Assembly (NCBI RefSeq): GCF_003334385.1 | Contig: NZ_QOWN01000001.1 | Strand: one strand, 5' to 3' | Length of the DNA: 64,000 bases | Source: Escherichia coli | Lineage (GTDB): Bacteria > Pseudomonadota > Gammaproteobacteria > Enterobacterales > Enterobacteriaceae | Shown: one piece after another, positions 21,617 through 64,000 of the stretch | Layout: every line of letters begins with the position of its first letter | Numbering within the stretch: the first letter of the stretch is position 1 | Notes under the pieces: model-generated | Database searches by the model: none | Told to the model about the DNA's origin: nothing | The model's input: the letters and a program-made list of their open reading frames with translations, nothing else | Made by a program: the position numbers and the translations under genes

Positions 21617-22687
21617 GTGGAAAAGCCATTTCGAAAAATCCTGGTCATAAAGATGCGATATCATGGGGATATGTTATTAACTACTCCTGTCATCAGTACG
21701 CTCAAGCAGAATTATCCTGATGCAAAAATCGATATGCTGCTTTATCAGGACACCATCCCTATTTTGTCTGAAAACCCGGAAATTAATGCGCTCTATGGGA
21801 TAAGCAATAAAGGTGCGGGAACTTTCGATAAAATTAAAAATGTGCTTTCGTTGATAAAAACTCTGCGTGCGAATAATTATGACCTGGTCATTAATCTTAC
21901 GGATCAGTGGATGGTGGCGCTGCTGGTACGTTGTTTACCTGCACGGATGAAAATATCGCAACTTTATGGTCATCGGCAGCATGGTATTTGGAAAAAAAGC
22001 TTCACACACTTAGCGCCAATACACGGTACACATATTGTTGAGCGTAATTTATCGGTCCTTGAGCCATTAGGTATTACCGATTTCTACACCGACACAACAA
22101 TGAGTTACGCCGAAGATTGCTGGAAGAAGATGCGCCGGGAATTAGATGCCCTGGGCGTAAAAGATCATTATGTTGTCATCCAACCGACAGCGCGTCAGAT
22201 ATTTAAGTGTTGGGATAACGATAAATTTTCTAAGGTTATCGATGCGCTGCAACAGCGAGGCTATCAGGTTGTGCTAACCTGTGGGCCCTCGGCAGATGAT
22301 CTCGCTTGTGTAGATGAGATTGCACGAGGTTGCGAAACAAAACCCATTACTGGCCTTGCAGGTAAAACACGTTTTCCTGAACTGGGTGCATTAATTGATC
22401 ATGCAGTGCTTTTTATTGGTGTGGATTCTGCGCCGGGACATATTGCAGCGGCAGTGAAAACGCCAGTCATTAGTCTATTTGGTGCAACGGATCACGTATT
22501 CTGGCGTCCCTGGACCGAGAATATTATTCAATTCTGGGCGGGGAATTATCAGAAAATGCCGACCCGGCATGAACTTGACCGCAACAAAAAATATCTTTCT
22601 GTTATCCCAGCGGAGGATGTGATCGCCGCTACGGAAAAGCTGTTGCCAGAAGATGCCCCTTCAGCTGACAGGAATGCACAATTATGA
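21617..22687 (+). CDS. waaQ: LPS core heptosyltransferase III
   Basis: 356-aa ORF from GTG 21617 (MEKPFRKILVIKMRYHGDMLL...); alternative ATG at 21653 gives 344 aa. Confidence 0.9.
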   Translation: MEKPFRKILVIKMRYHGDMLLTTPVISTLKQNYPDAKIDMLLYQDTIPILSENPEINALYGISNKGAGTFDKIKNVLSLIKTLRANNYDLVINLTDQWMVALLVRCLPARMKISQLYGHRQHGIWKKSFTHLAPIHGTHIVERNLSVLEPLGITDFYTDTTMSYAEDCWKKMRRELDALGVKDHYVVIQPTARQIFKCWDNDKFSKVIDALQQRGYQVVLTCGPSADDLACVDEIARGCETKPITGLAGKTRFPELGALIDHAVLFIGVDSAPGHIAAAVKTPVISLFGATDHVFWRPWTENIIQFWAGNYQKMPTRHELDRNKKYLSVIPAEDVIAATEKLLPEDAPSADRNAQL

Positions 22688-23808
22688 TCGTGGCGTTTTG
22701 TTTATATAAATATTTTCCATTTGGTGGGCTTCAACGTGACTTTATGCGCATTGCATCAACAGTTGCCGCACGGGGCCACCATGTTCGGGTATATACACAG
22801 TCGTGGGAAGGCGATTGCCCGAAAGCATTTGAGCTTATTCAGGTGCCAGTTAAGTCCCATACCAACCATGGACGCAATGCAGAATATTATGCCTGGGTAC
22901 AAAATCATCTCAAAGAGCATCCCGCAGATCGCGTTGTTGGGTTTAATAAGATGCCTGGCCTGGATGTTTATTTTGCCGCTGATGTTTGTTACGCCGAGAA
23001 AGTTGCGCAAGAAAAAGGTTTTTTATATCGTTTAACATCACGATATCGCCATTATGCCGCATTTGAGCGAGCGACTTTCGAGCAGGGTAAATCGACGAAA
23101 CTTATGATGCTGACCGATAAGCAAATCGCCGATTTCCAGAAGCATTATCAAACTGAACCTGAACGTTTTCAAATTCTTCCTCCCGGTATTTATCCGGACA
23201 GAAAATACAGTGAGCAAATCCCAAACAGCCGTGAAATTTATCGCCAGAAAAATGGCATAAAAGAGCAACAAAACTTATTACTGCAGGTTGGATCAGATTT
23301 TGGCCGTAAAGGTGTAGATCGCTCAATTGAAGCTTTGGCATCGTTACCGGAATCATTACGTCACAATACGCTTTTATTTGTTGTTGGTCAGGATAAGCCG
23401 CGAAAATTTGAAGCGCTGGCAGAAAAACTCGGCGTGCGGAGCAATGTGCATTTCTTCTCCGGTCGCAATGATGTGTCAGAATTAATGGCAGCCGCTGATT
23501 TATTACTGCATCCCGCTTATCAGGAAGCCGCGGGTATCGTTCTTCTAGAAGCGATCACTGCTGGGTTACCTGTTTTAACAACAGCGGTATGTGGGTACGC
23601 GCATTATATTGCGGATGCCAATTGTGGAACGGTCATCGCTGAACCTTTCTCTCAGGAACAATTAAATGAAGTTTTACGTAAAGCGCTAACTCAGTCGCCA
23701 TTGCGAATGGCCTGGGCGGAGAATGCTCGCCATTATGCCGATACTCAGGATTTGTATAGCTTGCCAGAAAAAGCCGCGGATATCATTACAGGTGGTTTAG
23801 ATGGTTGA
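22684..23808 (+). CDS. waaG: LPS core glucosyltransferase I
   Basis: 374-aa ORF; 4-bp overlap with waaQ stop. Confidence 0.95.
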
Positions 23809-24598
23809 ATTAAAAGAGCCGCTTGCCACACTTTGGCGTGGTAAAGATGCTTTTGCAGAGGTCAAAAAACTGAACGGCGAGGTCTTTCGTGAACTGGAGA
23901 CTCGTCGTACATTACGCTTTGAACTGTCCGGGAAAAGCTATTTTCTTAAATGGCACAAGGGGACGACATTAAAAGAGATTATAAAAAATCTACTCTCATT
24001 GCGGATGCCCGTTTTGGGCGCAGACAGAGAGTGGCACGCTATTCATCGCCTGAGTGATGTTGGCGTTGATACAATGAAGGGCATTGGGTTTGGCGAAAAA
24101 GGGTTAAATCCATTAACTCGCGCATCATTTATTATTACCGAAGATCTCACTCCCACAATTAGCCTTGAAGATTATTGTGCCGATTGGGCAGTCAACCCGC
24201 CTGATATACGTGTTAAGCGTATGCTGATCGCACGTGTAGCAACTATGGTGCGTAAAATGCATACTGCAGGGATAAATCACCGCGACTGTTACATTTGCCA
24301 CTTTTTGCTTCATTTGCCATTTACTGGCCGGGAAGATGAATTAAAAATTTCAGTTATCGATCTGCATCGGGCACAGATACGTGTAAAATTACCGCGCCGC
24401 TGGCGCGATAAAGACCTGATTGGTTTATATTTCTCATCAATGAATATTGGCCTGACGCAAAGAGATATCTGGCGATTTATGAAGGTTTATTTTGGGATGC
24501 CTTTACGCAAAATATTGTCTCTTGAACAGAATTTATTGAACATGGCAAGCGTTAAGGCCGAGCGTATTAAAGAGCGAACACAACGCAAAGGATTATAA
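23801..24598 (+). CDS. waaP: LPS core heptose(I) kinase
   Basis: 265-aa ORF; 8-bp overlap with waaG. Confidence 0.95.
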
Positions 24599-24634
24599 AA
24601 ATATTTATTAGTATGTACTGGAACTAACTTTATT

Positions 24635-25570
24635 ATGACTATTTATTTTATAAATTGGGTTGCAGATTATGAATTAAAAATGATTCAGTACCTGAAAAAA
24701 AAGTACAAGATAAAAAATATAACAACACCAAAAAAATATAACTGGATTAATAAAAAAATATCAAAAATAGGGATGGATAATGCATGGCTGGGGCGATTAT
24801 TCATCAAGCATTACCTCAATGATATTAAAAAAGATGACATAATTATCATTAATGACAGTGTTGTTAATAAAGGTATCAATAAACAAATATTAAAAAATAT
24901 TAACTGTCATAAAGTTTTGCTTCTAAGAAATACTGTTGGCGAAGATTTTATTCTTGATAACGCGAATTATTTCGATATTATATATGATTTTGAGCATAGA
25001 TTTATAGGGAATGAAAAGATCAAGGCAATAGAACAATTTTTTCCTATAGGAATGGATGAAATTAGAAATTATAGTTTATCTGACAAAAATAACAGCCAGC
25101 CAATATGTTTTTTCCTTGGTCGTGATAAAGGGCGTCTTCAAATAATTAATGAGTTAGCCGAGAGATTAACAACACTAGGATGTAAGCTAGATTTTAATGT
25201 TGTCAAAGATAAGACATCATCTACGACTTCAAAGTATTTGATTGAAAAACAAATATCTTATGAAGAGAATATTAGAAGAACATTAAATGCTAATATAATT
25301 GTTGATATAACCAAAGAAAACCAATCTGGCTGGACTCTTCGTATACTTGAGGCACTATTTTTCAATAAAAAATTAATTACTAATAATATAAATGTATTTG
25401 GTTCAGAAATCTATAGTGAATCTCGCTTTTTTATAATAGGTCATGATGATTGGGATAAGTTAGAGTATTTTATTAACTCATCTGTTAAACCAATGGATTA
25501 TGATAGTTTATATAAATTCAGTCCAGATAAAATGATGTCAACGATTGTTTCTGATTTTATAGACAAATAA
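24635..25570 (+). CDS. waaS: LPS core biosynthesis protein WaaS
   Basis: 311-aa ORF, very AT-rich; position and size fit K-12 waaS. Confidence 0.85.
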
Positions 25571-25613
25571 AACCGTTAAAACAGTGAGTTTTACTCAATT
25601 AATGAGAGTTTCT

Positions 25614-26693
25614 ATGAAAATAGCGTTTATCGGCGAAGCTGTTTCTGGATTTGGCGGCATGGAAACTGTCATCCGTGATGTTATTACTACCTTCAGGCAA
25701 CAACATATCCAAAGTGAAATGTTTTTCTTTTGTCGTAATGACAAAATGGATAAGGGATGGCTGGAAGGTATTAAATACTCATGTTCATTTTCCAATATTC
25801 GTTTAGGTTTTTTGCGTCGGGCGAAACATATTCATGCTCTAAGTAAATGGCTTCAGGAGTACCAACCAGATATCGTTATTTGTATTGATGTGATCTCCTG
25901 CCTGTTTGCCGCAAAAGCACGTAAAAAATCAGGAATTGATATGCCAGTATTTTCATGGCCACATTTTTCTTTAGATCACAAAAAACATGCTGAATATATC
26001 ACCTGTGCCGACTATCATTTAGCAATCAGCTCTGGCATTAAACAGCAAATGATTAATCGAGGTGTAGCAGAATCGACGATAAATGTTATTTTTAATCCCG
26101 TCGAAACTAAAGACTCAGTCATTCCCGCGCCCGAGGAAGGTGAAACGGCAACGTTTATTTATGTTGGGCGTATGAAATTTGAAGGCCAGAAAAGAGTTAA
26201 AGACCTGCTTGATGGCTTATCACAAGCGAAAGGTAACTGGAAACTCCATGTATTGGGTGATGGCTCCGATTTCGAAAAATGCCAGGCTTATGGTAGAGAA
26301 TTAAATATTGATGATCGAATTGTCTGGTATGGTTGGCAACAATATCCCTGGGAATTGGTCCAGCAAGATATTGAAAAAGTGAGTGCGTTATTGCTCACGT
26401 CATCTTTTGAAGGTTTCCCAATGACCCTACTTGAAGCCTTGTCGTGGGGGATTCCTTGTATCAGTGCCGATTGTGTCTCCGGGCCTGCTGACATTATTCA
26501 ACCTGATGTCAATGGCCATCTGTATCAACCGGGAGATATTGCTGGTTTTGTAACTCTTCTAAATAAATATATAGCAGGTGAAATTCATATCGAACATGAA
26601 AAAATTCCTGCGTCGATCGATGAATTTTACCAATCGAAGTATTACGATAGATTACATAAGGTAATTATTTCTGCTATTTCCCGGAGGAAATAA
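25614..26693 (+). CDS. waaB: LPS core alpha-1,6-galactosyltransferase
   Basis: ORF track frame from 25584; start at internal Met MKIAFIGEAVSGFGGMETV (359 aa). Confidence 0.9.
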   Translation: MKIAFIGEAVSGFGGMETVIRDVITTFRQQHIQSEMFFFCRNDKMDKGWLEGIKYSCSFSNIRLGFLRRAKHIHALSKWLQEYQPDIVICIDVISCLFAAKARKKSGIDMPVFSWPHFSLDHKKHAEYITCADYHLAISSGIKQQMINRGVAESTINVIFNPVETKDSVIPAPEEGETATFIYVGRMKFEGQKRVKDLLDGLSQAKGNWKLHVLGDGSDFEKCQAYGRELNIDDRIVWYGWQQYPWELVQQDIEKVSALLLTSSFEGFPMTLLEALSWGIPCISADCVSGPADIIQPDVNGHLYQPGDIAGFVTLLNKYIAGEIHIEHEKIPASIDEFYQSKYYDRLHKVIISAISRRK

Positions 26694-27712
26694 TGCAGCA
26701 GGTGTTTTTCCAGGAAACTGAGTTTCTTAATTCAGTTATTGATTATGATCATAAAGTAGAAACAGAAAATCTTTGTCTGGACATCGCTTATGGAACTGAC
26801 AAAAACTTTCTATTTGGTTGCGGAATTTCGATTGCTTCAATATTAAAATATAATGAAGGAAGTCGATTGTGTTTCCATATTTTTACTGATTATTTTGGTG
26901 ATGATGATCGTAAGTATTTTGATGCCCTGGCGTTGCAGTATAAAACCAGAATTAAAATATATCTGATTAATGGTGATCGACTGCGCTCATTGCCTAGCAC
27001 TAAGAATTGGACTCATGCAATATATTTTCGTTTTGTTATTGCAGATTACTTTATTAATAAGGCGCCTAAAGTCCTTTATCTGGATGCAGATATCATTTGT
27101 CAGGGGACTATTGAGCCACTAATTAATTTCTCATTTCCTGACGATAAAGTCGCAATGGTTGTTACAGAAGGGCAAGCTGACTGGTGGGAAAAACGCGCCC
27201 ATTCGTTAGGTGTTGCGGGAATTGCTAAAGGTTACTTTAACTCCGGTTTTTTATTGATTAATACTGCCCAATGGGCGGCTCAGCAGGTTTCTGCACGAGC
27301 TATTGCAATGCTAAATGAGCCAGAAATAATCAAAAAAATAACACATCCTGATCAGGATGTGTTAAATATGTTGCTGGCGGATAAACTTATTTTCGCTGAT
27401 ATTAAATATAACACCCAGTTCAGCTTAAATTATCAACTCAAAGAAAGCTTTATAAACCCAGTAACCAACGATACTATTTTTATCCATTATATCGGGCCAA
27501 CCAAGCCCTGGCATGATTGGGCCTGGGATTATCCTGTATCACAAGCCTTTATGGAGGCAAAAAATGCTTCGCCATGGAAGAATACGGCGTTGCTGAAACC
27601 GAACAATAGCAATCAATTAAGATATAGCGCAAAACATATGCTTAAAAAGCATAGATATCTAAAAGGATTTAGCAACTATCTTTTTTATTTTATTGAAAAG
27701 ATAAAGCATTAA
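26693..27712 (+). CDS. waaO: LPS core alpha-1,3-glucosyltransferase (GT8 family)
   Basis: 339-aa ORF; start shares a base with waaB stop. Confidence 0.9.
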   Translation: MQQVFFQETEFLNSVIDYDHKVETENLCLDIAYGTDKNFLFGCGISIASILKYNEGSRLCFHIFTDYFGDDDRKYFDALALQYKTRIKIYLINGDRLRSLPSTKNWTHAIYFRFVIADYFINKAPKVLYLDADIICQGTIEPLINFSFPDDKVAMVVTEGQADWWEKRAHSLGVAGIAKGYFNSGFLLINTAQWAAQQVSARAIAMLNEPEIIKKITHPDQDVLNMLLADKLIFADIKYNTQFSLNYQLKESFINPVTNDTIFIHYIGPTKPWHDWAWDYPVSQAFMEAKNASPWKNTALLKPNNSNQLRYSAKHMLKKHRYLKGFSNYLFYFIEKIKH

Positions 27713-27751
27713 AACTGGGAAACTATAAAGTAATGATATAAGGGTAGCATT

Positions 27752-28768
27752 GTGGACTCATTTCCTGCCATAGAGATAGATAAAGTTAAAGCCTGGGATT
27801 TTCGGCTAGCTAATATAAATACTTCTGAATGTTTAAATGTTGCCTATGGTGTCGATGCTAATTATCTTGATGGTGTAGGTGTTTCCATCACATCAATTGT
27901 CCTAAATAATCGACATATTAATCTTGATTTTTATATTATTGCTGATGTTTATAATGATGGTTTTTTTCAAAAAATTGCAAAGCTTGCAGAGCAAAACCAA
28001 TTAAGAATCACGTTATATAGAATTAACACTGATAAGCTCCAGTGCTTGCCTTGTACACAGGTCTGGTCAAGAGCAATGTACTTCCGTTTATTTGCATTTC
28101 AATTATTGGGTTTAACGCTTGATCGTTTGCTTTATCTTGATGCAGATGTTGTTTGTAAAGGCGATATTAGCCAACTATTACATCTGGGTTTAAATGGAGC
28201 GGTTGCTGCTGTTGTTAAAGATGTTGAGCCAATGCAAGAAAAGGCGGTATCCAGGTTGTCTGATCCTGAATTACTTGGGCAGTACTTTAATTCCGGTGTC
28301 GTTTATTTAGACTTAAAAAAATGGGCTGACGCAAAACTAACAGAAAAAGCGTTGTCTATTCTTATGAGTAAAGATAATGTTTATAAATACCCTGATCAGG
28401 ATGTTATGAATGTCTTACTGAAAGGGATGACATTATTTTTGCCTCGTGAGTACAATACAATTTATACAATTAAAAGTGAATTAAAAGACAAAACACATCA
28501 AAACTATAAAAAGCTGATTACAGAAAGTACTCTTCTTATTCATTATACAGGTGCAACTAAACCGTGGCACAAATGGGCAATTTATCCATCGGTAAAATAC
28601 TATAAAATAGCTTTAGAAAATTCCCCCTGGAAAGATGACTCTCCACGAGATGCGAAATCAATTATTGAATTTAAAAAAAGATATAAACATCTTTTAGTGC
28701 AACATCATTATATCTCAGGAATTATAGCAGGAGTCTGTTATCTTTGCCGAAAATATTACCGTAAATAA
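27752..28768 (+). CDS. waaJ: LPS core alpha-1,2-glucosyltransferase (GT8 family)
   Basis: 338-aa ORF from GTG (MDSFPAIEIDKVKAWDF...); paralogous to waaO. Confidence 0.9.
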   Translation: MDSFPAIEIDKVKAWDFRLANINTSECLNVAYGVDANYLDGVGVSITSIVLNNRHINLDFYIIADVYNDGFFQKIAKLAEQNQLRITLYRINTDKLQCLPCTQVWSRAMYFRLFAFQLLGLTLDRLLYLDADVVCKGDISQLLHLGLNGAVAAVVKDVEPMQEKAVSRLSDPELLGQYFNSGVVYLDLKKWADAKLTEKALSILMSKDNVYKYPDQDVMNVLLKGMTLFLPREYNTIYTIKSELKDKTHQNYKKLITESTLLIHYTGATKPWHKWAIYPSVKYYKIALENSPWKDDSPRDAKSIIEFKKRYKHLLVQHHYISGIIAGVCYLCRKYYRK

Positions 28769-28785
28769 CATTTAACTGGTTTATT

Positions 28786-29484
28786 ATGATTCAGAAGAGC
28801 AAGATCAAAGACTTGGTTGTTTTTACCGATGAAAACAATTCAAAGTACCTCAATGTATTAAATGACTTCTTGTCTTATAATATAAATATCATCAAGGTTT
28901 TTCGTTCTATTGATGATACAAAAGTTATGCTTATTGATACCGATTACGGTAAATTGATTCTTAAGGTTTTTTCTCCGAAAGTTAAGCGTAACGAACGTTT
29001 CTTTAAGTCTCTGTTAAAAGGTGATTATTACGAACGCCTTTTTGAGCAAACCCAAAAAGTACGAAATGAAGGGTTAAATACACTCAATGACTTTTATTTA
29101 TTGGCTGAACGGAAAACCTTACGTTTTGTCCATACTTATATCATGATCATCGAGTATATTGATGGCATAGAGTTGTGTGATATGCCCGATATTGATGATG
29201 CGCTAAAAAATAAAATTCAGCAATCAATTAATGCCTTACATCAACATGGCATGGTTTCTGGCGACCCCCATCGTGGTAACTTCATTATAAAAAATGGTGA
29301 GGTTCGAATTATCGATCTCTCCGGAAAGCGTGCTTCAGCGCAGCGTAAAGCGAAAGATCGTATTGACTTAGAGCGTCATTACGGTATTAAAAATGAGATT
29401 AGAGATCTAGGCTATTATCTTTTAGTATATCGTAAAAAAATGCGCAATTTTATGCGGCGTTTGAAAGGGAAACCAGCGCGCTAA
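28786..29484 (+). CDS. waaY: LPS core heptose(II) kinase
   Basis: 232-aa ORF, kinase-like. Confidence 0.88.
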   Translation: MIQKSKIKDLVVFTDENNSKYLNVLNDFLSYNINIIKVFRSIDDTKVMLIDTDYGKLILKVFSPKVKRNERFFKSLLKGDYYERLFEQTQKVRNEGLNTLNDFYLLAERKTLRFVHTYIMIIEYIDGIELCDMPDIDDALKNKIQQSINALHQHGMVSGDPHRGNFIIKNGEVRIIDLSGKRASAQRKAKDRIDLERHYGIKNEIRDLGYYLLVYRKKMRNFMRRLKGKPAR

Positions 29485-29554
29485 AAAAAATCCCACAATT
29501 ACATGTCTTCACCAGGACAGTTTTAAGCGGAGTTATTTATTTCACAGGTTTATC

Positions 29555-30406
29555 ATGAAGAATATTAGATACATTGACAAAAAAGATGTTGAAAACCTGA
29601 TTGAAAATAAAACATCTGATGATGTTATTATTTTTCTTTCGGGCCCTACATCGCAAAAAACACCTTTGTCAGTATTACGAACAAAGGATATTATTGCTGT
29701 CAATGGTTCTGCGCAATATCTGTTAAGTAATAATATCGTTCCTTTTATATATGTACTTACAGATGTCCGATTTTTACATCAGCGTCGTGATGATTTTTAT
29801 AAATTTAGCCAGAGAAGTCGTTATACCATAGTAAACGTTGACGTTTATGAACACGCTTCCAAAGAAGATAAACTTTATATCCTCCAGAACTGCCTCGTAT
29901 TACGGTCCTTTTACCGTCGGGAAAAAGGTGGTTTTATAAAGAAGATTAAATTTAATATTTTGAGACAGATTCACAAAGAACTGCTGATCTCTGTACCGTT
30001 GTCTAAAAAAGGTCGTCTGGTTGGATTTTGCAAGGACATTAGTCTTGGTTATTGCTCATGCCATACTATTGCCTTTGCTGCAATTCAAATCGCATATTCA
30101 CTTAAGTATGCGCGGATTATTTGTTCTGGTCTTGATTTAACGGGTAGCTGTTCTCGTTTCTATGATGAGAATAAAAATCCCATGCCCTCGGAATTAAGTA
30201 GGGATTTATTCAAAATATTGCCATTTTTTCGTTTTATGCATGATAATGTAAAAGATATTAATATTTATAATTTATCAGATGATACAGCTATTTCTTACGA
30301 TGTAATTCCATTTATTAAACTTCAAGACATCAGTGCAGAAGAATCAAAAGATATGACAAGGAAAAAAATGCAATATAGAACTTCAACCGATTCTTATGCT
30401 AATTAA
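29555..30406 (+). CDS. waaZ: LPS core biosynthesis protein WaaZ
   Basis: 283-aa ORF, AT-rich; position and size fit K-12 waaZ. Confidence 0.85.
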   Translation: MKNIRYIDKKDVENLIENKTSDDVIIFLSGPTSQKTPLSVLRTKDIIAVNGSAQYLLSNNIVPFIYVLTDVRFLHQRRDDFYKFSQRSRYTIVNVDVYEHASKEDKLYILQNCLVLRSFYRREKGGFIKKIKFNILRQIHKELLISVPLSKKGRLVGFCKDISLGYCSCHTIAFAAIQIAYSLKYARIICSGLDLTGSCSRFYDENKNPMPSELSRDLFKILPFFRFMHDNVKDINIYNLSDDTAISYDVIPFIKLQDISAEESKDMTRKKMQYRTSTDSYAN

Positions 30407-30438
30407 TCATCCTGAAACTAAAATAATATGGTATAAAA

Positions 30439-31512
30439 ATGCGCTTAGGAACTTTTCACAAAAAGAAAAGATTTTATATAAACAAAATCAAGATTAATTT
30501 CCTTTCTTTTTTATTTCGTAATAAAATAAATAATCAAATTACAGATCCAGCACAAGTTAAATCATGCCTTATTATTCATGATAATAATAAACTTGGTGAT
30601 CTAATTGTATTAAGTTCGATTTATCGTGAACTTTATAGTAAAGGGGTTAAAATAACTCTTCTCACAAATAGAAAGGGTGGGGAATTTCTCTCTAATAATA
30701 AAAATATATTTGAGTTCTGTATTAAAGAATCAACCGGTTTTCTTGAAATGCTTACTCTATGTAAGCATCTGCGGGATTTACAGTTCGATATTGTATTAGA
30801 CCCCTTTGAAACTATGCCCTCATTTAAGCATAGCTTAATATTATCAAGTTTAAAAGATTCTTACATTCTGGGTTTTGATCATTGGTATAAGCGTTACTAT
30901 TCATTTTACCATCCCCACGATGAATGTTTAAAAGAACATATGAGTACACGAGCAATAGAAATACTGAAGCATATTTATGGTGAGGGTAAATTTTCCACCA
31001 ACTACGACTTGCATTTACCAGTAGATGTTGAAGATAAAATAAAAGAATTTATTGGAGATACAAGAATAGTCATTATTAATCCATTAGGTGCAAAAAAAAT
31101 ATGCCGTCTTACGTTTGAGCAAATAAAAGTTATATATCAAGAAGTGAAAACACACTTTGAAAATTATCGGATTATATTTACCGGGTTACCGCAAGATTTA
31201 TTGACAATACCAATACTTGAAATCGAAACACTACCATTTGATGAGTTTATTTATACCGTTGCGTTGACCAAGTATAGTGATTTTGTCATTTCTGTTGATA
31301 CAGCTCTTGTTCATATCGCTGCGGCTTATCATAAACCAACGCTTGCATTTTACCCTAATTCACGTACTCCGGAATATCCCTCGCATTTAATTTGGTCCCC
31401 GAATCATCATAAATCTATACAAATAGTATCCCCAACATATACGGTAAAAGATATCGATACTGAAACTTTAACTAATTCAGTAAAGAGATTAAGTTGTATA
31501 GATAAGAAGTGA
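30439..31512 (+). CDS. waaU: LPS core heptosyltransferase IV
   Basis: 357-aa ORF; last gene of the long waaQ operon. Confidence 0.88.
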   Translation: MRLGTFHKKKRFYINKIKINFLSFLFRNKINNQITDPAQVKSCLIIHDNNKLGDLIVLSSIYRELYSKGVKITLLTNRKGGEFLSNNKNIFEFCIKESTGFLEMLTLCKHLRDLQFDIVLDPFETMPSFKHSLILSSLKDSYILGFDHWYKRYYSFYHPHDECLKEHMSTRAIEILKHIYGEGKFSTNYDLHLPVDVEDKIKEFIGDTRIVIINPLGAKKICRLTFEQIKVIYQEVKTHFENYRIIFTGLPQDLLTIPILEIETLPFDEFIYTVALTKYSDFVISVDTALVHIAAAYHKPTLAFYPNSRTPEYPSHLIWSPNHHKSIQIVSPTYTVKDIDTETLTNSVKRLSCIDKK

Positions 31513-31526
31513 GTTTTAACTCACTT
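31507..31526. terminator. Hairpin between convergent waaU and waaL
   Basis: Inverted repeat AAGTGAG-ttttaa-CTCACTT spanning the waaU stop codon. Confidence 0.45.
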
Positions 31527-31543
31527 CTTAAACTTGTTTATTC

Positions 31544-32803
31544 TTAATTAATTGTATTGTTACGATTATTAATGACGAGTAAGAGGACTATAGCGGATAT
31601 AATGATAATTGGAATGCTGCGTGCCCATATGATCACATCACTGAGTCCAATCCCCACAATGCCAAGCGTTAATATCAACAAACCCAAAGCTCGTTTTTTA
31701 TATGCTATATAAAATAGTGAAAAATAGAGGAAAAGTGTGGAAAAAATTCCCATCAGACCTTTCAGTGACCCTGCTTCAATTATCTCATTATGTAGATGTA
31801 CGTTAGAAAACTCCAATGCCCCTCTTAGCCTATTGTGTTCTGCAACTAACAAATTCATACTTTCAGCGCGTGACTCTGCTGATCTAAATGAAAAAGGTGA
31901 CTTTATGAATATATTTAAACCAATTTCGTACATTGCCAGTCTTGCACCTAGGGAAGTAACACTATTAGCATTGGTATAACTGTTTAAGTCATTTAATGCT
32001 TCATTATAGCGATTCTGTATTGGTTTATTAAATATAATAACAATGCTAGCTAATATAGCAATTAGTAGAACAATAGAGGAAGTGAATTTCTTGGGTGATT
32101 TATTATAATAAGCTATTAATGCAGCAACACAAATTATAGGGAACAGGAGTAGGGTTGCTCTGGTTTGTGTTAGCGCCAGAACATAAAGTACCGCGCAACT
32201 ATTTAATAAAAATAAAAAAGGATGATTTTTCTTAGTATAAAGAATCGCAACGCCACTAACTATCCCTATTAGCATTGTTGAATATGCTGCTCCTGTTGCC
32301 GTTCCTACACCAAAAGAAATGCGGTCATTTTCATGAATGCTATTAATATACATTGCATATCCAGCAATTAGAAATGACAGAGAATACAAAGTGTATAATA
32401 CACTCTCTTTTTTTGATTTTAGCTGGCTAGTTAGTGTCAAGAAAACAATAAAAGAACCAAATATAAATATTTTGGCAGTATTTAAATAACTATGGTAAGT
32501 AGCACGAAATGGCGAATTATCTACTTTAAACGCAGAATACCAAATTAAATCAAGCAAGCCTATTAAAAATATAGAAAGGGGAAGAATAAGGTTTTTTATA
32601 TTATAATTTTCTTGTCTGCCACGTAAAATTAGTGACAATAAGCAAACTATAGCAGTGATATTATATATTTTTATGCTGAAAGTATTATCGACGAATGCAA
32701 TTATCATTGAAAAAAAACATAATATATAAGTTATTATCTCTAAAATCATTGATGATTTCAGAGTGTAAGGTTTCAATGAATGAAGTTTAAAGGATGTTAG
32801 CAT
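31544..32803 (-). CDS. waaL: O-antigen ligase
   Basis: 419-aa polytopic membrane ORF, very AT-rich. Confidence 0.9.
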   Translation of the reverse strand: MLTSFKLHSLKPYTLKSSMILEIITYILCFFSMIIAFVDNTFSIKIYNITAIVCLLSLILRGRQENYNIKNLILPLSIFLIGLLDLIWYSAFKVDNSPFRATYHSYLNTAKIFIFGSFIVFLTLTSQLKSKKESVLYTLYSLSFLIAGYAMYINSIHENDRISFGVGTATGAAYSTMLIGIVSGVAILYTKKNHPFLFLLNSCAVLYVLALTQTRATLLLFPIICVAALIAYYNKSPKKFTSSIVLLIAILASIVIIFNKPIQNRYNEALNDLNSYTNANSVTSLGARLAMYEIGLNIFIKSPFSFRSAESRAESMNLLVAEHNRLRGALEFSNVHLHNEIIEAGSLKGLMGIFSTLFLYFSLFYIAYKKRALGLLILTLGIVGIGLSDVIIWARSIPIIIISAIVLLLVINNRNNTIN

Positions 32804-58372: not shown

Positions 58373-59509
58373 ATGGATCTATTGATTGTTTTAACTTACG
58401 TGGCGCTGGCGTGGGCGGTCTTTAAAATCTTCCGCATTCCGGTAAATCAGTGGACGCTGGCGACGGCGGCGCTGGGAGGCGTGTTTCTGGTGAGTGGTTT
58501 GATTTTGTTGATGAACTACAACCACCCTTACACTTTTACCGCGCAAAAGGCAGTGATAGCGATCCCTATCACGCCACAGGTGACGGGAATTGTTACTGAA
58601 GTCACTGACAAGAATAATCAGCTTATTCAAAAGGGCGAGGTGCTTTTTAAGCTCGACCCGGTTCGTTACCAGGCGCGAGTTGACAGACTTCAGGCTGACC
58701 TGATGACGGCGACGCATAATATAAAGACGCTGCGTGCGCAGCTCACTGAAGCGCAGGCCAACACCACCCAGGTTTCAGCGGAGCGCGACCGTCTGTTTAA
58801 AAATTATCAACGTTACTTGAAAGGCAGCCAGGCGGCGGTGAATCCGTTCTCGGAACGTGACATCGACGATGCGCGGCAAAATTTCCTCGCGCAGGATGCG
58901 CTGGTGAAAGGCTCGGTGGCGGAGCAGGCGCAGATCCAGAGCCAGCTCGACAGTATGGTTAACGGCGAGCAATCGCAGATTGTGAGCTTAAGAGCGCAAC
59001 TTACTGAAGCAAAATATAACCTTGAGCAGACTGTCATTCGCGCGCCGAGCAATGGCTACGTTACTCAGGTACTGATCCGCCCAGGTACATACGCAGCTGC
59101 CTTGCCGCTGCGTCCGGTGATGGTCTTCATCCCCGAGCAAAAACGGCAAATTGTCGCCCAATTTCGGCAAAACTCGCTGTTACGTCTGAAACCCGGCGAT
59201 GATGCGGAAGTGGTGTTTAACGCGCTACCTGGGCAGGTGTTTCACGGCAAACTGACTAGTATTTTACCTGTCGTGCCAGGCGGTTCTTATCAGGCGCAGG
59301 GGGTATTGCAATCATTAACGGTCGTGCCCGGCACGGACGGTGTGCTGGGAACCATTGAACTGGACCCTAACGATGATATCGATGCCTTACCCGACGGCAT
59401 CTACGCCCAGGTGGCGGTTTACTCCGACCATTTCAGCCATGTTTCGGTGATGCGGAAAGTGCTGCTAAGAATGACCAGCTGGATGCATTATCTTTATTTG
59501 GATCATTGA
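58373..59509 (+). CDS. yibH: HlyD-family membrane fusion protein YibH
   Basis: 378-aa ORF with N-terminal TM segment and coiled-coil; start 3 bp after yibI stop. Confidence 0.88.
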
Positions 59510-59968
59510 GGGGGAGGGGGGAGATTATGGAACTTTGCTCCTTGTAAGGACTAATTATTTTTGCATATTACTTCATTAGCTGCGATGATTTTTCTTTAAT
59601 ATTCATTATGTTAATAAGTTCTGGATGAGTGTGCTCTCATTGGATTTTTTATCCGTCTTGTTCTGCCGCAGGATGAGACTATACATCGTCGAGATCGCAA
59701 TGATGATATGAGTTGTTCCTCCTGCGACGGCTCTAATCAAAAAAGAGCAGGAGTGCTTTTCCATCTATTGCGATGATGGCTTTATTATCTGAAGGATGAC
59801 AGTCACATTTAAAAAATATTTAATCTATAGATCACAATGTAGGGTCATGGAATATATGTATACAACTATTTTCTTCTTCACTTTTAATTATCGTATTCAT
59901 TATAAAACTAAGTTAAAAAAACTCCTGGAGAGTGAGTTATTAATATATTTTTAAATAAAATTAAGTTA

Positions 59969-60406
59969 TCATTCATCGATGCACTTTATAGAATCATCAA
60001 TGGCCATAATAGTACTATTAACTCTCAATTTTATATTTTTATCATCACTACAAATATTAACTGAATTTATATCAATGATTTTTTTATTCTTATCTTTTAT
60101 TTTATTTACTGTTTCAATGCAATCAGCGGCAAGTTGGAGTGGATTTAGATTTTTCAGATATGGTCTTATGATCTTTCCCTTACTTAATAAATAGCATGTA
60201 TAGGATTCGGAAAGTCCAGCATCTATTTTGTACCTCATTATATTAGATAAGGATGTGAGAAATTCCTTGTTATCATTCGCAGCCATATATGCCAGTCCGA
60301 GTTCAGCCTCTGCGGCCTTACAGGCAAAATAGCTTAGTGAACACGCTTTTCGTCCCTCTTTAGTACTGGCTGATATTAGTGCCCATAATATTGCTTTGTC
60401 TGCCAA
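59969..60406 (-). CDS. Hypothetical protein, candidate immunity partner of the decayed third Rhs C-terminal cassette
   Basis: 145-aa frame with TTG start and no in-frame ATG upstream; AT-rich; sits directly downstream of the decayed toxin remnant. Confidence 0.4.
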   Translation of the reverse strand: MADKAILWALISASTKEGRKACSLSYFACKAAEAELGLAYMAANDNKEFLTSLSNIMRYKIDAGLSESYTCYLLSKGKIIRPYLKNLNPLQLAADCIETVNKIKDKNKKIIDINSVNICSDDKNIKLRVNSTIMAIDDSIKCIDE

Positions 60407-60494
60407 ATCTAACTCTCTCTGAAATTGTCTTGCAGTAACTGCACTCGCAGAAATAGAGAAAAAAATACAATTGTTAATAACCTTGCCATATTTT

Positions 60495-61110
60495 TTAGTC
60501 CGTAACTGTTAATGTGCTATCTGGCTCTGAAAATATTAACTCATTTAATTTTTGCATGTCATTAGATAAACCAGTTATACAACCCTCGGAACAGAATCGA
60601 GGTCCTAAAGACGGACCAAAAGCGTTTAAACAACTATGTATTGAAAATCCATTGCGATTATAAGTTCCTGTATTAACTGACGGTACTAATCGTATGCCGT
60701 CAGGTTTTCTATTGCTTGCTCCCGGGTCATTAACATTCCAACTCCATAGGCCTTGAGGTATTGGCCATCTATTTATAAATGTGTACAACGGGGATTATTT
60801 TTACATTGCATATTATTACCAGAAGCGACTGGAATACTAAGCACATCATAAAAATTATCATCACATGGTATATCTGAAACACACGAAAGCATACCTAAAG
60901 TTATGCTGTATAAACAGGTGGCTAATCCCAAGGGGATCGATTCCAGAAATCGGGTTCAACGGATACTGATAAAAATTCCACCTACCTTCCAGCCCAATCG
61001 GAGCCTGAGTGTTATACCGCCCCTGCTGCGGTTAATGTTACCGATAATAGTTATAGTACAGCCCTGATTCATCATCATACTACTGCTGCGGCAGTCTGAT
61101 GAACTATTGC
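60495..61110 (-). pseudogene. Decayed orphan Rhs core-end plus C-terminal toxin remnant
   Basis: My translation of 60951-61110 gives [45 protein letters not shown], a stop-interrupted copy of the Rhs core end; followed by a 97-aa TTG-start frame at 60495..60788. Confidence 0.6.
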
Positions 61111-61112
61111 TT

Positions 61113-61574
61113 TTACGGATTCTCCTTATTCTTCCTTCTATCCATTCGCTTTAGCTTTTTGAGCTCTTGAAGTTTGCTCTTTGCATCAATATTACCGTTA
61201 TTTACAGCGAATTCCATCCAATAAATAGCTCTATTCAAATTATAATATTCTGATAATGTTGGATTTGTATCTGATAAAAAGACCCCATAATTAAACTGCG
61301 CTGTAACATTCCCCTGAGATGCTGATCTTTCCAAGAATCGCAATTGTTTGTAAATGTTATTTTTAGTAAAGCAGTAATATTGATATAGTCGAAATGATGC
61401 CTCTGAATCACCATGTTGTGATTTATACTTCAGTTTCATCAACTTTTCTTCACTTAAATCATAGGTCATTGCTGTAGACCCCATCATACTTTCGTTTTGT
61501 TTTATTTTCACATCAGCACCATGCAATTGACAAATAAAAGAGAAATAAAAAAATAGTAACAAGCATGCTTTCAT
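61113..61574 (-). CDS. yibG: Sel1/TPR-like repeat protein with signal peptide; putative immunity protein for the YibJ toxin domain
   Basis: 153-aa ORF, ATG start 12 bp after the yibJ stop; N-terminus MKACLLLFFYFSFICQLHGA is signal-peptide-like; Sel1-like repeats. Confidence 0.8.
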   Translation of the reverse strand: MKACLLLFFYFSFICQLHGADVKIKQNESMMGSTAMTYDLSEEKLMKLKYKSQHGDSEASFRLYQYYCFTKNNIYKQLRFLERSASQGNVTAQFNYGVFLSDTNPTLSEYYNLNRAIYWMEFAVNNGNIDAKSKLQELKKLKRMDRRKNKENP

Positions 61575-61585
61575 ACATCTACAAC

Positions 61586-62566
61586 CTATCTTATATCACT
61601 GGGTTTTTCTGGCGTACCTTGCATATTAGAAATGGGGTGCCCAGATGGCCCATATGTTATCCAATTACCAAGGTCTTTTGTTGTTATAGCCATTAGATCC
61701 TTATTTGAATTAAGGTTCGTTGGTGCTGTTAGCACTGTATCCATTTTTAACTTACCATTAGTTCCTCGCCCCCACCACGTCCATAGCGTGTCAGGTCCTA
61801 TTACATTTGTATGTAACTCTTTAGCTAATTGGCTAGCAAATGAATTTTGTCCTTTACCTGTATTACAAGAAAATAACCAAACTGTCATCCCATCTTTATA
61901 ATTCCCATCAAATTTAATTAGATATGCTAGATCTTTAGCTGTCATGATACTGCGCGTTGCGGATTCAATAGATGTGGGGGTACCATGCCCCCCGATTGTG
62001 AAAACGCCTGGGATATTAATCTCATCAGCTACAGAATGGATAAGATCACTTTCGGGGTATAAATTTATATCAACCAAACCTTGCGGATCTACATTTATGA
62101 CCGGATTCAACGGATACTGATAAAAATTCCATCCCCCCTTCAGTCCAATCGGATCCTGAGTGATATACCGCCCCAGCAGCGGGTCATAATAGCGGTGGCG
62201 GTTGTAATACAGGCCGGACTCCTCATCATACTGCTGACCCGGCAGGCGAATGAGCTGCTGCAGATGATGCGGGTTCTCATCACTCAGCAGGTTGCCCCAT
62301 TCATCATATTCTGCGCACCACGCTGTTGCCCCTTCCGTGCTGATGAGCGCCAGCGGCAGGCCGCGATGGTCGCAGTGGTACAGGTGGATTTTTCGCGCCG
62401 GCGTGTACACCGGGTCCATCTGGTTTTGCATCTGCTCCACGGTCAGGCCGCACGATGCCAGCCAGCGGCGGCTTTCCTCACTCACCCGGTCAGCCAGGAT
62501 TTCACTTTCCAGCCGGTCGAGCATCTGCACCGTGCCGGCGGGAATCCCCCACTGTGCATAGGCAAC
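61586..62566 (-). CDS. yibJ: Orphan Rhs fragment: last ~150 aa of Rhs core plus a distinct ~160-aa C-terminal toxin domain
   Basis: Frame open from 62566 (6 bp after yibA stop) with no N-terminal region; contains [57 protein letters not shown] then an unrelated tail; ORF track shows it from GTG 62530 (314 aa). Confidence 0.8.
62103..62250. repeat. Rhs core 3'-end repeat, copy within yibJ
   Basis: Near-identical to 63856-64000 (GGATTCAACGGATACTGATAAAAATTCCATCCCCCCTTCAG...). Confidence 0.85.
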
Positions 62567-62571
62567 TCACG

Positions 62572-63414
62572 CTATGAACGCTTCAGCTTATCAATAGCGG
62601 AAGTTATAATTTCATTGTCATCAAACTTGTACAACATAGTATCTAAAACAGGAAGTAGCGTTTTATCACCTAATTCACCCGCAGCTTCAATGATATCATC
62701 ATAAACAGTATTTTTTTTTAACTCATCGCATAAAACAGATAAAACCCTTTTATCTTTTCTGTAGGAAAGTCCGATTATTGCTTCAATACGGACTTCCTCA
62801 TTTTTATCCTGAAGCATCTCCACAAAACAATCCCTAATATCACTATTATCATATTTATTGATATTTATTGCAAATGCGGCCCAGTTTCTGACATCTCCAT
62901 TTGGATCTTTTAACAGATTAATCAATAGTGGAATTGTTGCTTTATCATTGATAACAGAAATAGCAAATGCTGTAGCACGTCTGACATTAGTCGATTTATC
63001 AAAAGCAGTAATTTGAGATTGTTCTACTATTTTAGGTGAATAAATTGGGTTTTTCTTGCATCGCTGAGCCGTTGACTCGATTGCCGTAGCTCGAACGCAA
63101 GCGCTCTTATCATTCAATGCCATATTGTTCAAAATATTAAAAACATTATCTTCGCATTTTTTGCAAATTTTTATTTGCCCGAGTATAAATGCTCCGATAT
63201 CTCTACGGATATAATTTTTATCAGAGCAGAACTCAATTGCCAATCTAACAGCGTCTTGCCCACCTCTTAACTGTAATACTCTGGCAGATGAAATCCTTTT
63301 CAAGGAATTGTGATCATCAAGTAAGCGAAATAATTCATCATCATTTAGTTTCTTACATTGATTATATAAACCATACTCTTTACTTGCCTTTCTTTTCTGG
63401 TATGTATTTGACAT
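62572..63414 (-). CDS. yibA: HEAT-repeat protein YibA; putative immunity protein for the RhsA C-terminal domain
   Basis: ORF track frame to GTG 63429; start at ATG 63412-63414 (MSNTYQKRKASKEYG..., 280 aa) with GGAGG 8 nt upstream; begins 20 bp after rhsA stop. Confidence 0.9.
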   Translation of the reverse strand: MSNTYQKRKASKEYGLYNQCKKLNDDELFRLLDDHNSLKRISSARVLQLRGGQDAVRLAIEFCSDKNYIRRDIGAFILGQIKICKKCEDNVFNILNNMALNDKSACVRATAIESTAQRCKKNPIYSPKIVEQSQITAFDKSTNVRRATAFAISVINDKATIPLLINLLKDPNGDVRNWAAFAININKYDNSDIRDCFVEMLQDKNEEVRIEAIIGLSYRKDKRVLSVLCDELKKNTVYDDIIEAAGELGDKTLLPVLDTMLYKFDDNEIITSAIDKLKRS

Positions 63415-63434
63415 TGCAGGAACCTCCACAAGGG

Positions 63435-64000
63435 CTATCTTTTTTTATCGTTTGACTGTCTGGAGTGACGACAATTCCAGGCTTTCTGTGTGCTTTTTGC
63501 ATCTTTAGCACTAATATCACCACAATCAATTAGTTCCTGAAGTACGTCACATCTGTCGGGTTTTTTCCCATCACTCCAGAATCTGTCATTTATTATGTCA
63601 TTGACACGATCAGTTATCCCTGTGTCTGCAACATTTCCACGAGAAGCTATCATTGTTATATCTAATGCTAGTCCCGGATTATTCAATATTAGAGAGTCAA
63701 ATATTCTTTGTGATGCTGTATCGTTCCACCATTTTGTCAATGCTTTTGCAGCATTATCATCTGCTTGCTGCTGTGCAGGGCTTTTGGGCCATGGAATTGG
63801 CAAGGGGAATGGTCTAGGAAAAACTTCTAACCCCAGAGGATCTGTATTCGTAACTGGATTCAACGGATACTGATAAAAATTCCATCCCCCCTTCAGCCCA
63901 ATCGGATCCTGAGTGATATACCGCCCCTGCAGCGGGTCATAATAGCGGTGGCGGTTGTAATACAGGCCGGACTCCTCATCATACTGCTGCCCCGGCAGGC
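63435..64000 (-). CDS. rhsA: RhsA 3' end: end of core including the DPxGL boundary plus variable C-terminal domain; 5' part beyond window end
   Basis: Frame open to window edge; my translation of 63864-64000 gives [57 protein letters not shown], continuing into [14 protein letters not shown]...; stop TAG at 63435. Confidence 0.9.
63856..64000. repeat. Rhs core 3'-end repeat, copy in rhsA proper
   Basis: Near-identical to 62103-62250 and related to the decayed copy at 60951-61110. Confidence 0.85.

Follow-up and report, generated by a model that had tools for sequence, protein, structure and literature searches.

An RhsA tip array of Escherichia coli with an intact orphan tip predicted to resemble clan-CD cysteine proteases

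The window analysed here, a stretch of 64,000 nt from Escherichia coli (assembly GCF_003334385.1, contig NZ_QOWN01000001.1), ends at positions 59400–64000 in the distal part of the RhsA element, a canonical and annotated locus of the species. This segment is found at no less than 99% identity in about half of complete E. coli genomes, and its internal differences amount to four positions in 4.6 kb from K-12 MG1655 and to a single one from strain WG5, the closest complete genome across the rhs segment. The RhsA element of MG1655 (b3593–b3596, b4650–b4652, b4615) matches that of the window both in its location between yibF and yibH and in its gene order, the annotation running rhsA, yibA, yibJ (pseudogene), yibG, yibS and yibW (pseudogenes), yibV, yibU (pseudogene), yibH, yibI and mtlA. 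A first-pass annotation of the window had described at this place three copies of the Rhs core end, each followed by a different C-terminal domain and by a small open reading frame (ORF), under the names rhsA, yibA, yibJ and yibG, which agree with the MG1655 annotation. ORFs, composition and repeats were examined in the part of the window between 56000 and 64000. The array genes, all of which lie on the minus strand, form three cassettes, termed here A, B and C in the order of transcription, with the features listed below.

63829–64000, minus strand: core-end repeat copy A, the 3′ end of the rhsA core, the gene being cut by the window edge (NF041261 RHS_core 1205–1261; TIGR03696).
63435–63828, minus strand: RhsA C-terminal tip, a linker of ~50 aa followed by the Ntox34 domain (~63453–63677; Pfam PF15606).
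62572–63414, minus strand: yibA, HEAT-repeat protein, probable cognate immunity of the Ntox34 tip (NF007244, 466 bits; three Pfam HEAT_2 matches).
62075–62530, minus strand: core-end repeat copy B, a core fragment of ~455 nt heading the orphan yibJ ORF (NF041261 1111–1261; Pfam RHS PF03527).
61586–62074, minus strand: orphan tip B (yibJ-CT, the C-terminal tip of yibJ), 162 aa, intact; predicted clan-CD cysteine protease of C80/Tce1-like type with a His30/Cys70 dyad.
61113–61574, minus strand: yibG, 153 aa, Sel1/TPR-like, which presumably confers immunity to tip B (weak TPR_27 and Sel1 matches).
60925–61105, minus strand: core-end repeat copy C (yibS), decayed (TIGR03696; comparison with strain 201609; MG1655 pseudogene annotation).
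60495–60931, minus strand: decayed tip C (yibW), Tlde1-type L,D-peptidase domain (Pfam Tlde1_dom; strain 201609 allele).
59969–60489, minus strand: yibV, Imm57 immunity gene, frameshifted, leaving an ORF of 145 aa at 59969–60406 (Pfam PF15596).
59606–59804, minus strand: yibU, a 199-nt remnant of a transposase of the ISAs1 family (H-repeat), at the yibH end of the element (NF033564).

The three core ends form a family of direct repeats, whose members were placed by a repeat search at 62076–62247 (copy B, taken as the reference), 63829–64000 (copy A, 92%) and 60925–61096 (copy C, 73%). An independent blastn comparison within the window recovered the same copies, copy B (62085–62247) aligning with copy A (63838–64000) at 94.5% identity over 163 nt (E 2.5e-69) and copy B (62102–62256) aligning with copy C (60951–61105) at 77.4% over 155 nt (E 1e-29), and the positions first assigned to the three copies hold to within ~27 nt. 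The near-identity claimed for copies A and B is borne out by the first of these alignments, but the core fragment of copy B extends over ~455 nt (62075–62530) and not over the ~150 nt assigned to it at first. In an identity profile, which took its sequence past the window edge from WG5, copies A and B have ~460 nt in common, including an exact run of 183 nt, while the longest exact run of copy C is 26 nt. In translation, copies A, B and C all correspond to the end of the Rhs core and carry its DPxGL motif within the PxxxxDPxGL pattern, copy C reading PISGIDPLG(I/L). The TIGR03696 Rhs_assc_core profile gives 75.4 bits for copy A, 88.2 bits for copy B and 53.7 bits for copy C, the last value being obtained from a conceptual translation, and each of these exceeds the curated cut-off of 32.5 bits. 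The core remnant of copy C contains in-frame stops. Past DPxGL the identity between the copies collapses at once, and the tips, unrelated to each other, fall into three different families; behind each tip the small downstream ORF lies where the first-pass annotation had placed it. The AT-richness relative to the mtl genes that had also been remarked upon is reflected in a G+C content of 0.25–0.40 over the tips and small ORFs against 0.52–0.56 in mtlA, and the core fragments are G+C-rich, reaching 0.60 at 62200–62599.

Cassette A is the end of rhsA itself. The main gene lies upstream of the array and outside the window, and the WG5 locus provides it in full: a rhsA of 4134 nt that starts MSGKPAARQGDMTQYGG, in keeping with a full-length main gene of PAAR-like N-terminus and YD-repeat shell. 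The RhsA tip matches the Ntox34 profile PF15606 over its entire length (E 1.6e-43, residues 108–182, model 1–80/80), displays both motifs of the family, GNxxD as RGNVAD and WxCxH as WNCRH, and is accompanied by an Imm-HEAT partner, and it therefore belongs to the Ntox34 family. Zhang et al. 2012 (PMC3482391) are the source of the motif list and also name Imm-HEAT as the partner that gives immunity to the Ntox34 domains of RHS proteins. By hydropathy, the YibA protein has no export leader or signal peptide. The C-terminal region of RhsA is toxic and yibA is protective, according to the part of Poole et al. 2011 (PMC3150448) that recounts Vlazny & Hill 1995. The first ~215 nt of the RhsA tip (63614–63828) are a 100% match to a gene labelled "rhsB" in NCTC10444. 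The linker that follows DPLGL may thus precede more than one kind of toxin end, and recombination could find an additional site there. The RhsB-type tip of strains 15A and 201609 does not share this match to NCTC10444, for it diverges right after DPLGL.

Cassette B contains the orphan yibJ ORF, which from a GTG at 62530 runs through 314 codons without a stop, the first 152 codons encoding Rhs core and the next 162 the tip. Tip B is intact in the window and dead in MG1655, codon 234 being CAA (Gln) in the former (position 61831) and TAA (Q234*) in the latter. In some genomes yibJ-CT carries the label DUF8616, assigned by the Prokaryotic Genome Annotation Pipeline (PGAP). Sequence searches with tip B returned no Pfam, NCBIfam or PDB-chain match, the Pfam profiles Peptidase_C80 and DUF4347 included, and a profile search against the PDB yielded only marginal matches, among them legumain with E 0.77 over the His–Cys segment. 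An exhaustive profile-free search identified 562 relatives, the majority of which form the C-terminal end of Rhs/YD proteins or of other proteins resembling polymorphic toxins, and in an alignment of 48 diverse members residues H30, G31 and C70 are conserved in at least 90%. The structural matches of tip B, with their scores in brackets, comprise the Pseudomonas aeruginosa type VI secretion system (T6SS) effector Tce1 (DUF4347; 8.6), the Vibrio cholerae RTX cysteine protease domain (8.1), the TcdA cysteine protease domain (7.7), Gingipain K (7.2), a CHAT domain (6.6) and an asparaginyl endopeptidase of the legumain family (5.9). Similarly, the AFDB50 neighbours of tip B include proteins named DUF4347 and Peptidase C80. 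The predicted structure shows the caspase-hemoglobinase fold of clan CD, with His(-Gly) and Cys ending hydrophobic strands. Structural resemblance of the same kind led to the proposal that Tce1 and Tce2 are cysteine proteases (PMC13323088). On these grounds we infer that tip B is probably a small clan-CD His/Cys cysteine protease. Two other assignments of its GHG...SC residues were considered and rejected: an alpha/beta-hydrolase, as the structural matches are consistently with clan CD, and an L,D-transpeptidase, as in addition the 39-residue spacing between His and Cys is unlike the YkuD motif.

The gene downstream of tip B, named 'sel1 repeat family protein' by PGAP, is closely tied to it, yibG being linked to tip B in 3429 of the 3508 genomes that match any part of cassette B. 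YibG begins with a hydrophobic, signal-peptide-like leader (MKACLLLFFYFSFICQLHG, followed by AD; hydropathy 2.5). The same pairing recurs in two distant loci, a metagenomic orphan locus with a C-terminal domain 54% identical to tip B and an adjoining downstream YibG-like protein of 45% identity, and a VgrG-PAAR-linked full-length Rhs protein with a C-terminal homologue of 45% identity and an adjoining downstream YibG-like protein of 26% identity. The YibG-like proteins of both loci have hydrophobic N-termini. This co-occurrence in distant loci, together with the hydrophobic leaders, supports yibJ-CT and YibG as a cognate pair. The sequences suggest that the toxin of tip B would act in the envelope and that YibG would be exported to the periplasm. 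A yibJ-CT-like His/Cys domain is also present in 3–5 copies inside giant proteins of 3000–6800 aa (P0043, P0046, P0047, P0049, P0051 and P0061), and in actinobacterial proteins of AFDB50 it adjoins TNT, pierisin-like and ADP-ribosyltransferase toxin domains. In these giant and actinobacterial contexts the domain may be a processing protease rather than a toxin.

Cassette C was read against an intact allele of ~91% nucleotide identity in strain 201609, where it is annotated as a tlde1 domain-containing protein followed by an Imm57 family immunity protein. Relative to this allele the core end and tip of cassette C in the window carry a +1 frameshift within the DPLG codons (~60932–60935), a 9-nt in-frame deletion (~60821) and a −1 frameshift (~60775), and in the Imm57 gene a 1-nt deletion (~60465) separates the leader from the Imm57 domain. 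The intact Imm57 allele encodes 173 aa and has the leader MARLLTIVLFFSISANA. At ~60821, towards the N-terminus of the Tlde1-type tip, the GGTAATAAT unit is present twice in 201609 (SGNNGNN) and once in the window (SGNN), an in-frame difference in tandem-repeat copy number. Matches of the tip C remnant are weak (Pfam Tlde1_dom E 0.05, YkuD E 0.22), NCBIfam returned nothing for tip C, the intact Tlde1 allele or Imm57, and none of the three tips has a significant sequence match among PDB chains. A cluster representative that is 96% identical to the intact 201609 allele (P0022) carries PF10908, and the 97-aa cluster P0027, 87% identical to the intact allele, equals the remnant ORF of the window in length. 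The motif of tip C reads H-x15-S-E-G-C-I, a Glu replacing the His of the published Tlde1 motif HXX14-17-(S/T)HGCh (PMC9638812), and it stands in a frame that is broken by two frameshifts and preceded by stop codons. Tip C appears to be a pseudogene of the Tlde1/Tox-LD-peptidase family and is not a functional member. The Imm57 assignment is supported by a match to PF15596 over the full profile (E 2.7e-48, model 1–100/100), the 145-aa ORF representing the complete domain, and by the position of the gene directly downstream of tip C. The pairing of Imm57 with Tox-LD-peptidase was described by Zhang et al. 2012 (PMC3482391). PGAP labels yibV 'frameshifted'. Its ORF measures 145 aa in the window and 111 aa in MG1655 as a result of a 1-nt indel at 60078, which sits in an A/T run and alters the C-terminus of yibV. 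Since its longest exact repeat run is 26 nt and both of its genes are broken, cassette C is a fossil. The yibU remnant that closes the element matches NF033564 transpos_ISAs1 under the curated cut-off (E 6.8e-5, profile 96–131/314). An intact ISAs1 transposase lies between the cassettes of strain 201609 (L005 7645–8781), and several strains have yibA, yibG or the Imm57 gene disrupted by a copy of IS1 (H31, H43, H55, H57).

The toxin activities of the array had been regarded at first as not evident from sequence, a statement that is too broad since two of the three tips can be assigned to families, Ntox34 and Tlde1-type. The hidden Markov model searches that the first-pass annotation had proposed recognised the Rhs core in all copies as well as Ntox34 and touched tip C weakly, and no family profile matched tip B.

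The states of the three cassettes were then counted in 5,426 complete E. coli genomes, a clinically biased set to which coverage thresholds were applied. The Ntox34 tip together with yibA, covered to at least 80%, is present in 1757 genomes and any match to cassette A in 3142, many of the latter being yibA without the tip. The pair yibJ-CT and yibG is carried by 3429 genomes. Cassette C is found in any allele in 3656 genomes, in the decayed allele (at least 99% identity) in 3333 and in the 90–95% identity band that includes the intact allele in 331, and it is unmatched in 1729. In 933 genomes yibJ-CT stands on a stretch of Rhs core no shorter than 1 kb, and with cassette B present in 3429 tip B is thus detached in most of its carriers. 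In the window both displaced tips have the character of orphans, cassette B keeping ~455 nt of core and cassette C ~180 nt, and tip B is found on full-length rhs elsewhere. In genomes free of the element, nothing of this segment but the end of yibH appears to be left.

Individual strains display the alternative arrangements directly. In strain E32 a main gene of 4230 nt bearing tip B occupies the interval between yibF and yibH and is directly followed by yibG, and Ntox34 and yibA are absent. The single-nucleotide polymorphisms of E32 over the repeat are mosaic (orphan-like, rhsA-like, orphan-like) and mark no single crossover point. Strains 15A and 201609 carry an RhsB-type tip and yhhH on a core that is 95–100% identical to RhsA up to residue 1200, with yibA directly after them. 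Thus, behind such a core at yibF–yibH, WG5 and the window have Ntox34, E32 has yibJ-CT, and 15A and 201609 have the RhsB-type tip, so that one core at one locus is combined with at least three alternative tips. A yibA gene without the Ntox34 tip looks like an immunity gene retained after the loss of its toxin. In 15A (L004 10016–10120) a scar of ~30 nt from the 3′ end of Ntox34 lies directly upstream of yibA. Across the strains the cassettes occur attached, detached, immunity-only or decayed. The comparison of presence and absence across E. coli, which had been suggested as a check, therefore makes tip swapping visible within the species, strains E32, 15A and 201609 included. The suggestion that the orphan tips can be swapped onto the main gene stands for tip B, which sits on at least 1 kb of core in 933 of the 5,426 genomes, and fails for cassette C, whose swapping would have no useful effect with both toxin and immunity gene frameshifted.

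Taken as a whole, the array is very probably an RhsA element that has undergone successive C-terminal displacement. An incoming tip and immunity cassette, carrying a piece of Rhs core, would have recombined with the core of the resident rhsA, and the earlier tip with its immunity gene would have been displaced downstream, leaving the displaced tip without start codon, YD-repeat shell and export determinants. Cassette A would be the expressed end of rhsA, with an Ntox34 domain toxic inside the cell and YibA acting as cytoplasmic immunity. Cassette B would be an intact silent spare, and RecA-type recombination across the ~460-nt direct repeats would fuse its tip to rhsA, a fusion made plausible by the 183-nt identical run, which is amply long for homologous recombination. 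A simple crossover would entail the loss of Ntox34 and yibA, and a crossover after duplication would keep both. Cassette C would be the fossil of a Tlde1-type peptidoglycan L,D-peptidase tip with a periplasmic Imm57, its repeat being too diverged for efficient recombination. The repeat structure, the family assignments, the decay lesions and the occurrence of tips both joined to and separate from the main gene in different strains are shown directly; we infer the protease activity of tip B, the periplasmic sites of action and the direction of the historical events. A more tentative proposal, which we consider possible but somewhat short of probable, is that tip B and DUF8616 represent an uncharacterised family of small clan-CD protease-toxins acting in the envelope of the target cell and neutralised by secreted YibG, and that tip B is a live spare in this strain, unlike MG1655, for whose arming one recombination event within the 183 identical bases would suffice. 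The searchable literature yielded no functional study of either yibJ or yibG.

Several observations weigh against this interpretation. No recombination event is observed in the strain of the window, and in the near-identical WG5 locus there is no vgrG or other T6SS gene beside rhsA, which is abutted by yibF. The fused gene of E32 may represent the original attached arrangement and not a recent product of deletion. Signal peptides were judged on hydropathy and AXA-like sites only. A scan of 59400–64000 for sigma-70 promoters and terminators gave 14 promoter-like sites against 15.9 expected, a number not above chance, and says nothing on the expression of the orphans.

The same array could be a record of fossils and immunity only, the debris of tip replacements, kept, if at all, for orphan immunity genes that protect against neighbours still using the toxins, with orphan tips that are never re-used. 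We regard this as unlikely. For cassette C, dead in both genes and present as the same decayed allele (at least 99%) in 3333 genomes, it is compatible with displacement, and the two explanations differ for cassette B only. The many genomes with yibA and no Ntox34 tip (3142 match cassette A and 1757 carry both), the ~30-nt scar in 15A, the nonsense mutation of tip B in MG1655 and the lack of a T6SS gene beside rhsA in the WG5 locus would all suit a mere record. It is less easily reconciled with a tip B that is intact in the window and in most carriers, that retains 183 nt of perfect identity with rhsA and that stands on a long Rhs core in 933 genomes, and experiments in Salmonella have demonstrated that recombination can reactivate an orphan (PMC3967940).

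It is quite improbable that the orphan modules are autonomous intracellular toxin–antitoxin pairs expressed from internal starts, as has been proposed for Salmonella orphan Rhs. The 314 open codons of yibJ from the GTG at 62530 and its internal in-frame ATG codons are compatible with such expression, and toxin–antitoxin-like behaviour of Salmonella RHS elements is reported in PMC7043789, but upstream of yibJ no ribosome-binding site is recognisable and promoters are not above chance. Moreover, the export leaders of YibG and of the intact Imm57 fit toxins that act outside the cytoplasm of the producer, and cassette C is frameshifted. Chance similarity or an assembly artefact, with small ORFs that are unrelated housekeeping genes, is refuted and has nothing in its favour: the self-similarity, whose absence the first-pass annotation had named alongside housekeeping ORFs as grounds for giving up its proposal, is present with repeat E-values of 2.5e-69 and 1e-29, all three copies match the Rhs_assc_core model, the arrangement recurs in thousands of independent complete genomes, and the downstream ORFs belong to the Imm57 and HEAT immunity families, paired in the literature with exactly these toxins.

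Successive displacement at the RhsA element is thus supported, and the interpretation given in the first-pass annotation is correct, though already known and not new, both layout and mechanism having been published (Vlazny & Hill 1995, Jackson 2009, Poole 2011, Zhang 2012, Koskiniemi 2014). Arrays of Rhs tips illustrate the diversification of contact-dependent toxins in bacteria and the way in which earlier weapons and shields stay on record, and since the RhsA locus is the founding example its confirmation brings no new principle. The modest addition made here is the prediction of a clan-CD protease for tip B with a periplasmic Sel1-like immunity partner, in a tip that is intact in this window and also in many natural isolates, unlike the common reference MG1655, in which it is dead. 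This gives tip B a testable activity, that of a predicted His30/Cys70 protease with a periplasmic immunity protein, and the counts of cassette states in 5,426 genomes offer a ready natural data set on tip turnover.

Elsewhere in the window, a second block of low G+C extends over 21617–32803 (0.32–0.37, lowest at 24000–32000). Its NCBIfam matches are RfaP, WaaS, WaaB (1,6-galactosyltransferase), WaaO, RfaY and WaaZ, which identify the waa cluster for the lipopolysaccharide core. The array had been called the sole accessory-looking part of the window, a claim that does not hold in view of this cluster (~24000–32800, G+C 0.32–0.37). The waa gene set of the window is that of the K-12 core type. 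At the equivalent place WG5 has a different waa gene set, and the strain of the window is therefore mosaic relative to WG5.

Among known systems, the closest in structure are the arrays with which the C-terminal displacement model was put forward by Jackson et al. 2009 (PMC2935791), where yibF–yibH is E. coli rhs position 10, and the orphan rhs-CT/rhsI and cdiA-CT/cdiI modules of Poole et al. 2011 (PMC3150448). These arrays consist of dissociated tips with core fragments of variable length, the tips differing while the cores match, and the locus described here is structurally an instance of them. In Salmonella Typhimurium LT2, as here, an orphan tip with some core sequence preserved and an immunity gene to itself lies behind a full-length rhs gene; the LT2 orphan has no signals for initiation or export, and recombination with the main gene activates it. 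The LT2 rhs locus lies within the Salmonella pathogenicity island 6 T6SS island. In contrast, no T6SS gene flanks rhsA here, as judged from the WG5 locus, the toxin domains differ, and there are two orphans, one of which is decayed. Recombination between orphan and main rhs gene that arms a cryptic toxin was demonstrated experimentally in Salmonella (Koskiniemi et al. 2014, PMC3967940) and would be plausible for cassette B of the present locus.

Tip C finds its counterparts in the Tlde1/Tldi1 pair of the Salmonella T6SS (PMC9638812) and in Tox-LD-peptidase/Imm57. It shares with them the L,D-transpeptidase-like motif H-x15-S-x-G-C, its intact relatives carry PF10908 and its partner is an Imm57 with a signal peptide. 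In contrast to Tlde1, the domain is here an Rhs C-terminal tip and not a stand-alone effector, SEGC takes the place of (S/T)HGC, and both genes of the window are frameshifted. Tip B, for its part, compares with the clan CD proteases, namely Tce1 (PDB 9qpe) and the cysteine protease domains of MARTX and TcdA/TcdB (peptidase C80), but its core of ~105 aa is much smaller. Unlike the C80 and Tce1 domains, it forms the end of an Rhs protein and is accompanied by a Sel1-like partner that is secreted and dedicated to it, and this terminal position with a dedicated partner indicates that tip B would be a toxin and not a self-processing domain.

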